In this document: positions 8,940-54,106 of the stretch, piece by piece
Layout of the letters: every line of letters starts with the position of its first letter
Numbering within the stretch: the stretch's first letter is position 1
Assembly: GCA_002787695.1 (NCBI GenBank)
Contig: PCXL01000011.1
Coordinates: 138,250-202,249, forward strand
From: Candidatus Zambryskibacteria bacterium CG10_big_fil_rev_8_21_14_0_10_42_12
GTDB lineage: Bacteria; Patescibacteriota; Minisyncoccia; Phycocordibacterales; 1-14-0-10-42-12
Direction: 5' to 3'
Length of the DNA: 64,000 bases
Made by a program: the position numbers and the translations under genes
The notes under the pieces: model-generated
Told to the model about the DNA's origin: nothing
What the model saw: only the letters and a program-made list of their open reading frames with translations
Database searches by the model: none

Positions 8940-9050
8940 TTATTTCTTCTTCTTTGAAGAAGCTTTCTTTTTTGCTGCAGGCTTTTTAGTTGCCTTTTTT
9001 GCTGCAGGCTTTTTAGTTGCCTTTTTTGCTGCTTTTTTCTTTGCTGGCAT
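8940..9050 (-). CDS. 36-aa lysine/alanine-rich basic protein (histone H1/Hc1-like), absent from the ORF track because it is under 60 aa
   Basis: Minus-strand ATG (9050) to TAA (8940) encodes MPAKKKAAKKATKKPAAKKATKKPAAKKKASSKKKK. It contains a perfect 27-nt tandem duplication (8974-9000 and 9001-9027). Confidence 0.5.
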   Translation of the reverse strand: MPAKKKAAKKATKKPAAKKATKKPAAKKKASSKKKK

Positions 9051-21322: not shown

Positions 21323-21393
21323 TGCGGGATCGTCTAATGGTAGGACACCAGGTTTTGGTCCTGGGTATCTAGGTTCGAGTCCTAGTCCCGCAG
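21323..21393 (+). tRNA. tRNA-Gln (anticodon UUG)
   Basis: Manual cloverleaf: acceptor tgcggga/tcccgca with the U1-A72 pair and G73 typical of tRNA-Gln, D-arm gtct-aatggta-ggac, anticodon loop ttttggt (34-36 = TTG), T-arm ctagg-ttcgagt-cctag. It is followed by hairpin tgggatat-gac-atatccca. Confidence 0.8.
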
Positions 21394-21656
21394 CCTAAAA
21401 CAAAAGATTGGGATATGACATATCCCAAGAGTATTGTTTTACTGTAGAGACAGGACTCGAACGGCGGAGCGCACAAAGTCCGAGCATAGCAATGCGAGGG
21501 CGCGAGCCGGTGCCCAGACCTTGTATGAGTGACGACGAGTACAAGAGTCGAGGGAGAGAAGCGAAGCGGTCCTAGTCCCGCAGCAATGAACAGAAGCAAG
21601 AAATAAGTCTAATGGCCAGTCTCGCCAAAGCGTGAGCCTAGGCGGATAGGACGCTT

Positions 21657-21717
21657 GGTTTTGGTCCTGGGTATCTAGGTTCGAGTCCTAGTCCCGCAGC
21701 CTAAAACAAAAGATTGG
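21657..21717 (+). repeat. 61-bp exact direct repeat of the tRNA-Gln 3' half plus flank (ggttttggtcctgg...cccgcagcctaaaacaaaagattgg); a pseudo-tRNA attachment-site-like scar
   Basis: Identical to 21351-21412. The upstream part (gtctaatgg + 32-nt insert + aggacgcttgg) resembles the tRNA-Gln D and anticodon arms but carries mutations and lacks the acceptor 5' strand. Further tRNA-Gln fragments lie at 21569-21584 (direct) and 21462-21471 (inverted T-arm). Confidence 0.55.
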
Positions 21718-21745
21718 AATAAGTGGTATTTGATATAATAGTCAT

Positions 21746-22854: not shown

Positions 22855-22862
22855 AAATATGT

Positions 22863-22907
22863 AAAGCACGAAAAAACCTCCTAAAATAGGAGGTTTTTTC
22901 GTGCTTT
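22863..22907 (+). terminator. Intrinsic terminator
   Basis: aaagcacgaaaaaacctcc-taaaat-aggaggttttttcgtgcttt is a long perfect stem with a T-run. Confidence 0.7.
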
Positions 22908-23876
22908 ATGGCTTTCCGAATATCTTTTTCGTATAGTGAACATATGGAAAAAGTGGCTAAACTAGGCATAAAGTGCGTACTCCATGGAAGTTTCAGAAAG
23001 CATTTTGATCTCATTCAACAAACGCGCCAGGTTTTTACGGATGCAGGCATAGAGGTTATCGCACCCAAACTGTCTGATATAGCAGGAGAAAAGGATGGTT
23101 TTGCATATCTTGAAGGAGAAGAAAACGCTGACCCAAGACTGATTGAACTTCTGTATCTCCACAATCTAAAAGATCTCGGACAAAATGGATTTAGTTATTT
23201 TGTAAATCCGGAAGGGTATATTGGAAAAAGTGTGTCGTACGAACTGGGTATTGCACAGCTCTCAAACATACGATGTTTTTTTATGGAAAACCCGAATGAT
23301 CATCCGGCTTATGTACATAAAAATTCTGTGTGGAAGCCTGAAAAACTTGCCGAATATATATTGGATAAAGGTGTACCACCCGACCCTCTCATCAAAAGAA
23401 ATGAAAAAGCACTTCATAAACTATGGGAAGATTTGATGGTGCCAGGTTCTATTGTGGCAGCAGGCGCGATGATTCAATATGAACCGAGGAAGACGACAGA
23501 TAAAAAGGAAATTCTCTTGGTAAAAACACACAAATGGGGAGACAGATATTCTATGGTGGGTGGAAAGGTGCGTCGAAATGAATTGTTTAAAGATGCTTTG
23601 TTGCGCGAAGTGAAAGAAGAAACTGGTCTTTCTGGGAAAGTTGATAGACATGTTTGTACCTTTGATCAAATAAAAAACTCCGGCTATTACAGATCAGGCA
23701 TTCAGCATATTTTTATTGATAACGTAGTAAAAGTGGACAGCAGACGAGTGACACTTAATGAAGAGGCGCAAGACTATATATGGATTACGGCAGAAGAAGC
23801 ACTGGCGTCTCTTCATATTGAACCAAATGCGCGACATACCATAGAGTTATATATAAATTTAATGCCACAACGATGA
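22908..23876 (+). CDS. Two-domain protein: N-terminal nucleoside 2-deoxyribosyltransferase-like (NDT/Rcl-like) fold fused to a C-terminal NUDIX hydrolase
   Basis: The C-terminus carries a perfect Nudix box, GGKVRRNELFKDALLREVKEETG (G-x5-E-x7-REVxEEtG). The N-terminus has VLHGSF (compare YLAGPFF) and GKSVSYELGIAQ (compare DSGTAFEIGYA), both typical of the NDT-like superfamily. The start may be 22944, since the terminator abuts 22908. Confidence 0.65.
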   Translation: MAFRISFSYSEHMEKVAKLGIKCVLHGSFRKHFDLIQQTRQVFTDAGIEVIAPKLSDIAGEKDGFAYLEGEENADPRLIELLYLHNLKDLGQNGFSYFVNPEGYIGKSVSYELGIAQLSNIRCFFMENPNDHPAYVHKNSVWKPEKLAEYILDKGVPPDPLIKRNEKALHKLWEDLMVPGSIVAAGAMIQYEPRKTTDKKEILLVKTHKWGDRYSMVGGKVRRNELFKDALLREVKEETGLSGKVDRHVCTFDQIKNSGYYRSGIQHIFIDNVVKVDSRRVTLNEEAQDYIWITAEEALASLHIEPNARHTIELYINLMPQR

Positions 23877-26036: not shown

Positions 26037-26063
26037 CAGTTGGAAGGCACTGTAAACTAGTAT

Positions 26064-26187
26064 GGTCCCGTTAGAGATCACGGACGCTTGAAGGTAAAAT
26101 ATTGGATATGTATGATTACAAAAAGTTTGTTATTAATTAACTTTAGGTCGAGGACAATACGGTCCGCGTCCTATCTCTAACGGGATG
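26064..26187 (+). promoter_or_regulatory. Copy A of a ~125-nt conserved structured element: terminal inverted repeats tcccgttagagat..cggacgc / gcgtcctatctctaacggga, whose 3' arm contains the start codon of the downstream gene
   Basis: Long-range stem of about 20 bp, an internal ggac-loop-gtcc mini-hairpin just before the 3' arm, a conserved ttaattaa in the loop closing a ~10-codon uORF (MYDYKKFVIN*), and the ATG of the 26185 gene embedded in ...taacgggATGa. A second copy lies at 48269-48390. Confidence 0.5.
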
Positions 26188-26403
26188 ACAAAAAATAAAA
26201 ATATAATTGTAAGCCTTGGTAAAAATGTTTCTATTGTCGCAGGAATTGTACTTATCTGGAGAGGTATTTGGTATACGCTTGATAAAATAGATCTGGCCTT
26301 GTTTGGAGGTAGTCATGCATGGACAGCTATTGGTGGCATTATACTAGGGCTCATCATTCTTTATATCCCTGATGGCGATTGGCACGAAATTGAGAAACTT
26401 TAG
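26185..26403 (+). CDS. Hypothetical 72-aa 2-transmembrane membrane protein
   Basis: VSIVAGIVLIWRGIWY and WTAIGGIILGLIILYI. Its start codon sits inside the 3' arm of structured element A. Confidence 0.45.
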   Translation: MTKNKNIIVSLGKNVSIVAGIVLIWRGIWYTLDKIDLALFGGSHAWTAIGGIILGLIILYIPDGDWHEIEKL

Positions 26404-48175: not shown

Positions 48176-48268
48176 AAAAACGTTAAAAATTGTCTATTTA
48201 TTGTACCGATAAGTGCTCATGTAAGCAAAACAGTTATGCACGGTTTTGTGATACAATAGCTCTCGTAT

Positions 48269-48390
48269 GAGTCCCGTTAGAGATAGCGGACGCTCAAGGA
48301 TAAAGACAGTGAATATATTAAAAGTACATTATCAACTTAATTAAGATAGGATTAAGGACACTGTGTCCGCGTCCTATCTCTAACGGGATG
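48269..48390 (+). promoter_or_regulatory. Copy B of the ~125-nt structured element (arms tcccgttagagatagcggacgc / gtccgcgtcctatctctaacggga) overlapping the start codon of the FKBP gene
   Basis: Same terminal arms as copy A (26064-26187), the ggac-actgt-gtcc mini-hairpin, a conserved ttaattaa in the loop, and the ATG of the 48388 gene embedded in ...taacgggATGa. Confidence 0.5.
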
Positions 48391-48879
48391 AGAAAATTAC
48401 ATACGCATGAATGGATTGGCGTTATTATCGCCATCACGGTGGTTGCTTTTTTAGTAATAGAAGGGGTGTTTGGTGATCTATTCAAAATTGAAGACGATCA
48501 TTCGCTTGTTAATTTAGAAAATCAAGGGGAACTTATGGATAATGAAAATACTCAGTCGCTCGGAGGACTCACTATAGAAACAATTGCAGAGGGTACTGGT
48601 GCTGAAGTGCGTGCGTTTGATGAGCTTACGGTACATTACACAGGGACACTCACAAATGGAACCGTGTTTGATAGTTCAGTTACGCGAGGTACGCCATTTA
48701 CATTTGTAATTGGTCAAGGCAGTGTTATTGCTGGTTGGGAAGAAGGTTTACTTGGTATGAAAGTTGGTGAAAAGCGACGACTTACTATTGCGCCTGAGAA
48801 AGCGTATGGCAGAGCGCAGGGACACGAATTGCAGAACGAGACGCTTGTATTTGAAGTCGAATTGCTAGACATTCAGTAA
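48388..48879 (+). CDS. FKBP-type peptidyl-prolyl cis-trans isomerase, membrane-anchored
   Basis: N-terminal transmembrane helix (WIGVIIAITVVAFLVI), then an FKBP core (VHYTGTLTNGTVFDSS...FTFVIGQGSVIAGWEEGLLGMKVGEKRRLTIAPEKAYG). Confidence 0.8.
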   Translation: MRKLHTHEWIGVIIAITVVAFLVIEGVFGDLFKIEDDHSLVNLENQGELMDNENTQSLGGLTIETIAEGTGAEVRAFDELTVHYTGTLTNGTVFDSSVTRGTPFTFVIGQGSVIAGWEEGLLGMKVGEKRRLTIAPEKAYGRAQGHELQNETLVFEVELLDIQ

Positions 48880-51958: not shown

Positions 51959-54106
51959 ATGGCAGACTCGAACATTTTCAATTTGGTCTCTGAATTTAAG
52001 CCTTCTGGAGATCAGCCGCAGGCTATAAAGGCTCTGACAGAAGGTGTTAAATCTGGTCTCAAACACCAGACGCTGTTGGGTGTGACCGGGTCGGGTAAAA
52101 CATTTACGGCGGCAAACGTGATTCAAAATATTGGCAAACCGACTCTTGTTATTGCACATAATAAAACACTCGCCGCGCAGCTCGCTCAAGAATACAAAGA
52201 ATTTTTCCCTGAAAACGCAGTGCATTATTTTGTCTCTTATTATGACTATTATCAGCCGGAGGCCTATATGCCGGTTACTGATACATATATCGAAAAAGAA
52301 GCGATGATCAATGAGGAGATTGAGCGCCTTCGTCATGCGACAACGCAAGCACTCCTTACAAGACAAGACTGTATTATTGTCGCGTCTGTTTCGTGTATCT
52401 ATGGTTTGGGTTCTCCTATTGAATACGAAAAAGTAAATATGCGGATTGAGGTCGGACAAGCAATTTCTCGTAATGACTTTGCACGAAAGCTCATTGATAT
52501 TTTTTATAAACGAACGAATGCCGACCTCACACCAGGAGAATTTCGCGCGCTTGGAAATACGGTTGAGATTATGCCGGTATCAGAGAAAATCGTGTATCGC
52601 ATAGAATTTGCCGGAAATAATATAGAACATATTACAATAATCGATGCGATTACAAGAAGTGTGTACGAAGATAATGTGCCATCCTTCTTCCTTTTTCCTG
52701 CAAAGCACTTTGTGACGCCGGAAAACGAAATAAAGCGTGCAATAAAAAGTATTAAAGAAGAACTTGCTGATAGGCTTGCGGTTTTAGAAAAAGAAGGAAA
52801 GATCTTGGAGGCTGAACGACTCAAACGTCGGACAAACTATGATCTCGCCATGATCAAAGAAGTTGGATATACAAATGGTATTGAAAATTATTCTCGCCAT
52901 TTTGATAACAGAGCTCCTGGTGAACCACCTTATACACTCCTTTCATATTTTCCACATAAATCGGATGGGAGTCCGGATTTCCTCACCATCATTGATGAAT
53001 CGCACGTCACTATTCCGCAACTCGGTGGCATGTATGCGGGGGATCAGTCTCGTAAACAAAATTTGGTAGATCACGGATTCCGTCTGCCGAGTGCCCGAGA
53101 TAACAGACCTCTTAACTTTGAAGAAGTTGAAGAGAGGCTAGGACAGCGGATTTATACGAGTGCTACACCTGGAGAATATGAGAAAGAACATTCAAAGGAT
53201 CCGGCAGGGCAAGCCCGCCTGTCAGCGCCTGAAGGCTTAGTCGATGGCGGACAGGTCGTGGAACAAGTTATTCGTCCGACAGGACTGATTGATCCGCCTA
53301 TTTTTGTGCGCGGTGTTGTAGAGAGTGGTCCGTATAAAGGTCAGATTCAAGATTTCATAAAAGAGACAGTTGAGGTAGTAAAAGGGGATGGACGAGTAAT
53401 CGCAACGACGCTCACCAAGAAAATGGCAGAAGATCTCTCTGAATATTTGAAAGAGAAAAAAATAAAAGCAGAGTATCTACACAGCGACATTAAAACCATT
53501 GAGCGTATTGAGATTTTGACCGATTTTCGCCGTGGAAAGTTTGATTGTTTGGTTGGCGTGAATCTCCTTCGAGAAGGCCTCGATCTTCCCGAGGTTGAAT
53601 TTATTGGCATTCTGGATGCAGACAAAGAAGGATTTTTGAGGAGTGAGACGTCACTTATTCAAATCATTGGTCGAGCGGCGCGAAATATAAAGGGGCGCGT
53701 AGTTCTCTATGCCGACAACATAACCGGTTCAATGGAGAGGGCAATTGGCGAGACGAATCGTCGCAGAGATATTCAGATTGCGTATAACAAAAAACATAAT
53801 ATTACGCCGAAGACAATTATCAAGAAAATTGCCGATATCACCGAGCACATGAAAAGTGATCATGATAAGGCGGTCGCGGCAGATCTCAAGCGTGATGAAA
53901 AAATCTATAAGAAAAATCCAGAAAAACTGATTCGCATCAAAGAGAAACAAATGAATGCGTCAGTGAAAATCTTGGACTTCGAAACGGCAGCGCTCTTGCG
54001 TGATGAAATTACAGTGATAATGCAAAAACTAAAACAAGAGGAAAAAGAAAGTAATAAAGTGATAAAACAGGAGAAGGAAAGGAGTCAAAAAAGGAATACT
54101 CTGTAA
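51959..54106 (+). CDS. uvrB: Excinuclease ABC subunit B
   Basis: GVTGSGKTFT Walker A, DESH, helicase motifs, and a C-terminal UVR domain (ETAALLRDEITVIMQKLKQ). Confidence 0.95.
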   Translation: MADSNIFNLVSEFKPSGDQPQAIKALTEGVKSGLKHQTLLGVTGSGKTFTAANVIQNIGKPTLVIAHNKTLAAQLAQEYKEFFPENAVHYFVSYYDYYQPEAYMPVTDTYIEKEAMINEEIERLRHATTQALLTRQDCIIVASVSCIYGLGSPIEYEKVNMRIEVGQAISRNDFARKLIDIFYKRTNADLTPGEFRALGNTVEIMPVSEKIVYRIEFAGNNIEHITIIDAITRSVYEDNVPSFFLFPAKHFVTPENEIKRAIKSIKEELADRLAVLEKEGKILEAERLKRRTNYDLAMIKEVGYTNGIENYSRHFDNRAPGEPPYTLLSYFPHKSDGSPDFLTIIDESHVTIPQLGGMYAGDQSRKQNLVDHGFRLPSARDNRPLNFEEVEERLGQRIYTSATPGEYEKEHSKDPAGQARLSAPEGLVDGGQVVEQVIRPTGLIDPPIFVRGVVESGPYKGQIQDFIKETVEVVKGDGRVIATTLTKKMAEDLSEYLKEKKIKAEYLHSDIKTIERIEILTDFRRGKFDCLVGVNLLREGLDLPEVEFIGILDADKEGFLRSETSLIQIIGRAARNIKGRVVLYADNITGSMERAIGETNRRRDIQIAYNKKHNITPKTIIKKIADITEHMKSDHDKAVAADLKRDEKIYKKNPEKLIRIKEKQMNASVKILDFETAALLRDEITVIMQKLKQEEKESNKVIKQEKERSQKRNTL

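Follow-up and report, generated by a model that had tools for sequence, protein, structure and literature searches.

Two hairpin elements at start codons

The window, that is the whole analysed stretch of 64,000 nucleotides (positions 138,250 to 202,249 of contig PCXL01000011.1) from the Patescibacteriota genome Candidatus Zambryskibacteria bacterium CG10_big_fil_rev_8_21_14_0_10_42_12, contains two copies of a short hairpin-forming element, each of them at the start codon of a protein-coding gene. Copy A is 120 nt (26066-26185) and copy B 117 nt (48272-48388) long; both lie on the forward strand, as do all their parts and host genes given below, and have in common exact 13-nt inverted arms, TCCCGTTAGAGAT and ATCTCTAACGGGA, which pair in a helix designated P1 and confirm the two loci with near-identical arms noted in a preliminary description of this DNA. 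As had also been seen there, the long stem has the start codon at its base: in both copies, the 3' arm ends in an A with which the downstream ATG begins, and this ATG is the earliest possible start of the gene. The two elements are very probably non-autonomous deletion derivatives of a very small mobile element, resembling miniature inverted-repeat transposable elements (MITEs).

Copy A is preceded by ATGG (26062-26065), which repeats the right flank ATGA imperfectly and is the old copy of the start codon, left 5' of the insertion. The 5' terminal inverted repeat TCCCGTTAGAGAT (26066-26078), the 5' strand of P1, is followed by GGACGC (26082-26087), which in the predicted fold is the distal partner of GCGTCC (26166-26171) in a layout here called type B, and by an AT-rich interior (26088-26151), in which tblastn found no remnant of a GIY-YIG nuclease and whose best match is the interior of copy B at 73% identity. 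A 10-codon open reading frame (ORF; 26108-26140) and TTAATTAA (26133-26140) lie in this interior. The mini-hairpin GGAC-AATACG-GTCC (26152-26165) leads to GCGTCC, the 3' strand of a second helix, P2, which corresponds to the K-R-F codons of the full-length elements described below, and the 3' terminal inverted repeat ATCTCTAACGGGA (26173-26185) corresponds to their (L)SLTG codons. The host gene of copy A (26185-26403) encodes a 72-aa predicted protein with two transmembrane segments, for which searches gave no confident family. The copy A locus is present in four contigs, and the two of these that were listed are identical to the window across the aligned region.

In copy B, an extended -10-like box TGaTACAAT (48249-48257), not called by a simple promoter scan, is located 9 nt 5' of the old ATG and would fit a leaderless or nearly leaderless host gene before insertion. 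The old ATG is made up of an A at 48267 and the left target-site duplication TGAG (48268-48271), an exact match to the right one (48389-48392). Between the two lie the 5' terminal inverted repeat TCCCGTTAGAGAT (48272-48284), GGACGC (48288-48293) as the predicted distal partner of GCGTCC (48369-48374, the 3' strand of P2), TTAATTAA (48337-48344), the mini-hairpin GGAC-ACTGT-GTCC (48356-48368) and the 3' terminal inverted repeat ATCTCTAACGGGA (48376-48388), whose last base is the A of the ATG. The host gene (48388-48879) encodes an FKBP-type peptidyl-prolyl isomerase (PF00254, E 1.6e-31) with an N-terminal hydrophobic segment.

The mini-hairpins with loops of six and five nucleotides, TTAATTAA and the short ORFs had all been described beforehand and are present, except that the copy A peptide reads MYDYKKFVIN-stop and not MYYDYKKFVIN-stop. 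In addition, the old ATG opens a short ORF through the 5' arm, at 26062-26091 in copy A (MVPLEITDA-stop) and at 48267-48344 in copy B (25 codons). The coding capacity of both copies is restricted to such short ORFs of 10 to 26 codons, and the nuclease of the full-length elements matches nothing there by tblastn. Copies A and B fold at -43.7 and -45.3 kcal/mol, with z-scores of -4.6 and -6.3 against shuffles, and the reverse strands of both fold about equally well. GGACGC beside the 5' arm pairs with GCGTCC beside the 3' arm, the latter preceded by the mini-hairpin GGAC-N5/6-GTCC. Neither a 12-mer search tolerating at most 2 mismatches nor a covariance model reveals a third copy in the window; a 72% match at 53872 is taken for a chance similarity, having neither a partner arm nor a model match and lying in a region that reads as coding.

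Insertion at start codons and the full-length form

Loci for comparison were gathered with the exact pattern CCGTTAGAGAT-N75-105-ATCTCTAACGG in one genome per species, mostly metagenome-assembled genomes (MAGs). The pattern matches at least 120 genome loci in many phyla (designated here by L-numbers), with many Patescibacteria lineages, Omnitrophota, Planctomycetota, Elusimicrobiota, Ignavibacteria, Ratteibacteria and one Clostridia MAG among the matches listed. The copies in these loci constitute the set of 125 used below. Viral contigs gave 0 matches to the arm pattern and thus no sign of a phage vector, a possibility that was dropped.

Direct repeats in the flanks, absent from the preliminary description, are part of the conserved unit (ATGAG/TGAG in copy B, ATG in copy A). 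Across the 125 copies they beat permuted controls (0/2000), with examples such as ATGAAT...ATGAA, ATGGAT...ATGGA, GTCAAC...GTCAAC and ACTGAT...ACTGAT. The duplications comprise about 4 bp (TGAA, TGGA, TGAG, TAAA and similar) and are usually T(G/A)AA-like. In copy B, a perfect TGAG stands on both sides, and removal of the element restores ...GTATGAGAAAATTA, which reads M-R-K-L. The evidence for mobility consists of one orthologous site, in front of typA, and of these statistics on the other copies. At the occupied typA site of L042, the element (T...A) is framed by tttttttATGGA and TGGAAATC, with the junctions ...gggtcttttttt-ATGGA/TCCCG...CGGGA/TGGAAATCAG, whereas L203, whose TypA is 91% identical to that of L042, has a precise empty site (tttttttATGGAAATC; ...gggtcttttttt-ATGGAAATCAG). 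Relatives with 84% and 83% identical TypA (L204 and L205) are empty as well, and L005, at 70% identity, carries the element at the same nucleotide in the opposite orientation. Because the closer relatives of L042 are empty, the two orientations are independent insertions; the typA element is an insertion with a TGGA duplication, sporadic in close relatives and recurrent at one site. The preliminary description had named a small mobile element with inverted repeats at its ends as a fallback, and this is borne out by target-site duplications and an empty site, although the positions are not random, as had been anticipated for a MITE, but at start codons.

Insertions in Patescibacteria are usually exactly at the start codon, where the terminal A of the element and the duplicated TG rebuild the ATG of the host gene 3' of the element and the old ATG stays 5' of it. 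The placement at start codons belongs to the way in which the element inserts and reflects no regulatory circuit. In 70 of the 125 copies, an ORF of 50 aa or more starts exactly at CGGG/ATG or GTG, and many others are located 7-20 nt ahead of a Shine-Dalgarno (SD) sequence and an ATG. The upstream gene, when close, has its stop inside the 5' repeat (ATGA, TAATG), or its frame reaches TAG in the 5' arm. A -10-like hexamer stands 6-9 nt 5' of the old ATG in 22 of 54 loci of the Candidate Phyla Radiation (CPR), against about 8.6 expected (for example in L049, L054, L068 and L089), and the boxes ahead of the duplicated 5' ATG read TACAAT, TATAAT or TATACT; this position of the boxes suggests that many target genes were leaderless before insertion.

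The downstream genes are of unrelated function. The 90 proteins encoded 3' of copies match 170 Pfam families, the commonest of which occurs in 4 proteins, and include typA/EF-G, aminoacyl-tRNA synthetases, RRF, ribosomal protein S8, glycosyltransferases, SMC and ABC ATPases. The association with membrane proteins proposed beforehand is hence a coincidence of two cases. The P2 strand agrees with the gene strand in 66 of 76 cases (66 proximal, 10 distal).

A full-length form of the element, of about 285 bp, has 13-nt end repeats YCCCGTTAGAGAT ... ATCTCTAACGGGR and a single gene of 86 codons between the arms, which encodes a stand-alone GIY-YIG nuclease of the UPF0213/YhbQ type (Pfam PF01541, E 1.5e-16 to 3.4e-19). 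Full-length elements with the same arms were found in L208, L213, L218/L223, L112 (2566-2841), L003 (3775-4158), L007 and L021; the long elements of L112 and L003 encode the small GIY-YIG protein on the strand ending ...AAGCGTTTCCTATCTCTAACGGGG. The last five nuclease codons (L-S-L-T-G) are the 3' repeat itself, and in the three members examined at the DNA level the ORF starts 6-8 nt past the 5' arm. In L208, GATGAA is followed by TCCCGTTAGAGAT-CATGCTAT-ATG, the 86 codons ending in CTATCTCTAACGGGA, and TGAAAA, the nuclease stop TGA overlapping the ATG of a downstream VWA gene. In P2 of the full-length form, TTACGGAAACGCTTTAG (L-R-K-R-F) pairs over a long range with CTAAAGCGTTTTCT (L-K-R-F-L) to give a helix of 13 bp.

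At E<=1e-10, a protein search with the nuclease yielded 4569 clusters. Among the best 120, the majority are exactly 86 aa long and 71-91% identical to the query, and the hosts of these 120 are Omnitrophota, Planctomycetota, Elusimicrobiota, WOR-3, several CPR lineages and Flavobacteriales. An alignment of 27 sequences shows the C-terminal NRLKRFLSLTG to be invariant, or conserved to 90% or more, in most of its columns; N-termini called too far upstream read ...PVRD..., the translated 5' arm. Source annotations are 'excinuclease ABC subunit C', 'GIY-YIG nuclease family protein' and 'endonuclease containing a URI domain'. Among proteins of solved structure, those nearest in sequence belong to UPF0213, namely 1ZG2 (BH0048, E 1.3e-09) and 1YWL (EF2693, E 7e-04). 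GIY-YIG domain proteins have been listed among genes transferred from Patescibacteria (PMC12455944). The literature searched, with most subscription journals outside its coverage, held no description of the element.

The short copies can be related to this full-length form. The full-length profile aligns colinearly to the short copy of L103 (positions 3-98 and 250-282, E 6e-11) and more weakly, in the same register, to others, so that the common form of about 116 nt, called type A, is the full-length element minus the loop between the P2 strands. Deletion of this loop accounts for the constant interior length, which is 73-77 nt and AT-rich in the 125 copies, for the 'TAC/GG' consensus (L-R codons) and for the interior YGGGA and GTCG motifs. 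In the type B layout, the 5' strand of P2 lies beside the 5' arm; it is found in the window copies and in L114, L083, L064, L036, L090, L029 and L092, and its derivation appears less clear than that of type A. The window copies are mutual best matches in their interiors, at 73% against 56 +/- 5% for random pairs, followed by the type B copies of L114, L064 and L083 at 66-73%. The interior, noted as diverged in the preliminary description, belongs to a sub-family found in other genomes as well. The P2 variants GGAAATC-TAAA-GATTTCC (L014, L066, L091 and L092) and GGTCGTC...GACGACC (L018, L038 and L090) recur and no longer fit R-K-R-F codons, and in L003 (3775-4158) a short copy is nested within the full-length nuclease ORF. 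Since non-coding P2 types recur across genomes and a nested copy exists, the short forms probably spread themselves in the manner of MITEs.

Weighing of explanations and proposed mechanism

Both helices covary. In P2, all 7 modelled pairs change on both sides and 90.6% of the cells are paired in the 125-copy set, with a covariation score of 0.29 compared with 0.124 for shuffles and at most 0.09 for slid partners. The arm variants of P1 are compensatory (GAGAC/GTCTC, GAAGT/ACTTC, GAAGC/GCTTC, GATAGTGTT/AACACTATC and GTACGAAC/GTTCGTAC), and a covariance model built from the collected copies (R1) picks up diverged copies with different yet complementary arms. The outer arm pair is T:A in Patescibacteria and C:G in other phyla, and P2 takes the form 'AC-GG....CC-T' directly before one arm. 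That pairing is conserved more than sequence, as had been stated beforehand, is explained here by the ends of a mobile element, the 3' arm of which is coding in the full-length form; a requirement for single-stranded or cruciform DNA is also compatible with the covariation.

With such helices, a start codon at the helix base and a P2 strand that mostly follows the gene, a cis-regulatory leader RNA would be one reading: the hairpin sequesters the start codon of genes without an SD sequence until it is opened by a ligand, by temperature or by ribosomes translating a short ORF upstream. The stable folds, the short ORFs opened by the duplicated 5' ATG, and an interior YGGGA of a subset of CPR copies, which could pair with the 5' arm in an alternative helix, can all be read in this way. 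However, in Rfam 15 the whole window gives only two tRNAs at gathering scores and the two copies only chance-level matches at E<=10, the downstream genes form no coherent pathway, and close orthologues lack the element, as the precise empty typA site at 91% identity demonstrates; likewise 0 of 80 FKBP-homologue loci carry it (metagenome relatives with at most 46% full-length identity, from which no empty site was obtained). Moreover, the conserved nucleotides lie in perfect helices and not in junctions, the arms and P2 are nuclease coding sequence in the full-length form, and YGGGA matches the L-R codons of a decayed GIY motif. The riboswitch-like or leader-peptide control favoured in the preliminary description is consequently very improbable; a ligand riboswitch in particular was rejected on account of the diversity of the downstream genes.

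Somewhat less improbable, but still unlikely, is that each short copy is an in-situ relic, a local full-length insertion minus its interior, and that short forms never move. The short copies are indeed colinear deletion products of the full-length form, a slippage deletion between complementary P2 strands would be easy, and no trans-acting partner lies within the window. This reading is contradicted by non-coding P2 variants that recur unchanged from one genome and locus to another, by the unusual type B layout shared by the two window copies as mutual best matches and by the nested copy of L003. That the elements are invertons, promoter-bearing segments flipped by a site-specific recombinase to switch the downstream gene on or off, is hardly credible. 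Inverted repeats do flank an AT-rich segment directly 5' of genes, both orientations exist and the orthologous typA loci L042 and L005 are oppositely oriented; however, empty relatives separate these two as independent insertions, the best sigma-70-like score of the interiors (5.34 forward, 6.03 reverse) is near that of shuffled interiors (5.36), the insertions have target duplications and the segment measures no more than about 95 bp. An association with a recombinase was not seen either, in data not systematically searched for one. Two further identities were discarded. Integron attC sites have the core order 5'-RYYYAAC ... GTTRRRY-3', the reverse of the order here, 5'-GTTAGAG ... CTCTAAC-3' on both strands. 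For a DDE transposase as the partner, no arm pair in the collected loci spans an ORF of transposase size, and this candidate was given up once the GIY-YIG ORF had been found; ends of the IS1380-like type read 'CC...' and are associated with duplications of 4-5 bp.

Several observations weigh against the derivation of the window copies from a mobile GIY-YIG element. The flanking repeat of copy A is degraded (ATGG versus ATGA), only the last 24 nt of the window copies align to the full-length profile, the evidence for colinear deletion being that of type A, and the 64-kb window contains no 86-aa gene with the FLSLTG tail, so that a partner in this genome is hypothetical. As the loci were gathered by exact arms, the apparent conservation of the arms is inflated, and the 66:10 orientation bias together with the conserved P2 might reflect a role at the level of the host, possibly as RNA. 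Furthermore, we know of no GIY-YIG nuclease for which transposase activity has been demonstrated, and duplications of about 4 bp with insertion into many genes are unlike the movement of classical homing endonucleases.

Considerably more tentative than the assignment of the window copies to a mobile element is a proposal for how it works. The element of about 285 bp may be among the smallest autonomous mobile elements in bacteria, with the 86-aa GIY-YIG nuclease as a transposase-like enzyme that recognises the hairpin or cruciform of ends and P2 and inserts at translation starts of the T(G/A)AA type, the nuclease being read from the host start, the host gene being translated by coupling and the gene-less hairpins being mobilised in trans. 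Since the nuclease gene is exclusively associated with these ends, we infer that the nuclease supplies the cleavage for mobility, in trans for copies without the gene. The duplicated T(G/A)AA-like tetranucleotide would provide a stop right after ...LTG and, in Patescibacteria, an ATG with the terminal A. In the full-length form, the nuclease would be expressed from the host promoter and the duplicated start codon: a transcript starting at the old ATG would read M-N-P-V-R-D through the 5' arm, a spacer of 6 or 9 nt would keep this frame into the nuclease ORF, and the nuclease stop, TGA or TAA from the flank, would overlap or abut the host start, with translation of the host gene by coupling at ATGA.

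The window copies, if transcribed, would place a hairpin of about -44 kcal/mol before a gene that lacks an SD sequence and probably was once leaderless. These hairpins may be tolerated rather than regulatory. Translation of the short ORFs from the old ATG would melt P1, and host translation might follow this melting or breathing of the stem. Gene-less hairpins, the two of the window among them, could be tolerated because the insert is looped out by the stem or because a short upstream ORF opens the stem.

The element is of known kinds, combining MITEs with free-standing GIY-YIG endonuclease genes, and does not represent a new category. Correia/NEMIS of Neisseria, ERIC/IRU of enterobacteria and RUP of pneumococcus are MITEs transcribed into mRNA hairpins; they are thought to depend on DDE transposases of insertion sequences and are confined to a genus or family. 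Similarities to the present element are a length of about 100-150 bp, terminal inverted repeats, short target duplications, several copies per genome, a location beside or overlapping gene ends and long co-transcribed hairpins. Unlike in those families, the sole gene found between the same ends is here an 86-aa GIY-YIG nuclease, the ends are near-identical across phyla, one end is coding and insertion is exactly at start codons.

With GIY-YIG homing endonuclease genes, free-standing ones such as those for the Seg proteins of phage T4 and the intron-encoded I-TevI, the element shares the character of a selfish gene with a GIY-YIG nuclease as sole product, the sporadic presence in close relatives and the location between host genes and in their orientation. 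Homing endonucleases have an added DNA-binding domain, one cognate site and homology-directed repair, and lack inverted repeats or target duplications; in contrast, a bare 86-aa catalytic domain, inverted ends, duplications of about 4 bp and scores of unrelated target genes are found here. The UPF0213/YhbQ proteins of the solved structures 1ZG2 and 1YWL are likewise small single-domain GIY-YIG proteins; we know of no description of mobility, of inverted repeats or of a C-terminal ...KRFLSLTG tail for any of them.

As in the REPIN/RAYT system, non-coding hairpin repeats of about 100 nt are kept together with one small nuclease gene, which the short forms far outnumber. REPINs, however, are REP doublets that owe their mobility to a domesticated HUH transposase; they show no target duplications and are each restricted to one species. 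RAYTs are HUH/Y1 enzymes whose gene is present once and is not bordered by its own repeats in the way seen here. Rickettsia palindromic elements are also small palindromic mobile repeats tolerated in or at the edge of essential genes, and some copies of the present element are read in frame, for example the 3' arm in L112 as a prepilin leader. The Rickettsia elements differ in that they insert inside coding regions and are translated, and we know of no nuclease-encoding full-length form of them.

Patescibacteria, Omnitrophota, Planctomycetota and other uncultured phyla commonly carry both the hairpins and their parent genes, the latter under the mistaken labels 'excinuclease ABC subunit C' or 'GIY-YIG nuclease family protein'. 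Because of their covariation and fixed position at gene starts, the hairpins could easily be mistaken for riboswitches in comparative RNA screens. If the proposal holds, a one-gene element of 86 codons with a coding end would widen the notion of a minimal mobile element, the more so as it inserts exactly on start codons, and proteins of the UPF0213/YhbQ type would gain a testable role. The insertions also offer a natural experiment on genes without an SD sequence or leader that tolerate a hairpin of about -44 kcal/mol on the start codon.

Further derivatives and other repeats of the window

In other genomes, nested, tandem or clustered copies occur, with two copies 8 nt apart in L100 (3371-3615), four within 7.6 kb in L090 (896-6418) and a further case in L022 (1137-1445). 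Shorter derivatives of 59-91 nt, comprising little beyond the paired arms, are located at L081 3620-3678, L086 1963-2053 and L204 4428-4500; the 59-nt derivative of L081 retains a P2-like stem, and that of L204 was seen as a model match only. At an Omnitrophota-type locus (L112 1510-2821 and 3313-3436; L071 52-175), each of several consecutive pseudopilin genes is preceded by an element whose 3' arm, in frame with the gene, is read as ...KRFLSLTG and leads straight into the prepilin motif FTLLE or FTFLE, one gene being a 245-aa ORF for a GIY-YIG-pseudopilin fusion. The element seems to supply the prepilin leader peptide at these loci. As a general target the prepilin leader was rejected: of 123 exact-arm copies, just two, that of L071 and one of those in L112, are followed by G-F-T-L-x-E.

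The window itself encodes another GIY-YIG protein, of 78 aa, at 1122-1358 on the forward strand, which belongs to the same family and in searches is 56% identical over 78 aa to the nuclease of a full-length element. Having neither the ...LKRFLSLTG tail nor the TCCCGTTAGAGAT arms, it does not qualify as an autonomous partner for copies A and B. The gene ends one base before a tRNA-Thr gene (1359-1432) and is bracketed by a 12-nt direct repeat, ATATAAGCCGCC, at 1047-1058 and 1353-1364, the second copy of which includes the first 6 nt of the tRNA; the segment 1047-1364 has the appearance of another kind of GIY-YIG cassette, one that entered a tRNA gene at its 5' end. A GC-rich segment of 43 nt just upstream of this GIY-YIG gene (1059-1101) recurs with 84% identity at 53214-53256, where it reads as coding.

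Other repeats of the window include the 3' part of tRNA-Gln (21323-21395), which together with the following 20 nt or so downstream is repeated at 21647-21721 (95%) and in a shorter piece at 21569-21608, only one tRNA being called in 21323-21724. Duplicated tRNA 3' ends often mark integrated elements. Three tandem 27-nt units, two of them identical and the third at 70%, occupy 8967-9047, and at 22862-22908 two perfectly inverted 22-nt repeats (TAAAGCACGAAAAAACCTCCTA / TAGGAGGTTTTTTCGTGCTTTA) enclose a loop of 3 nt and may form a bidirectional terminator.

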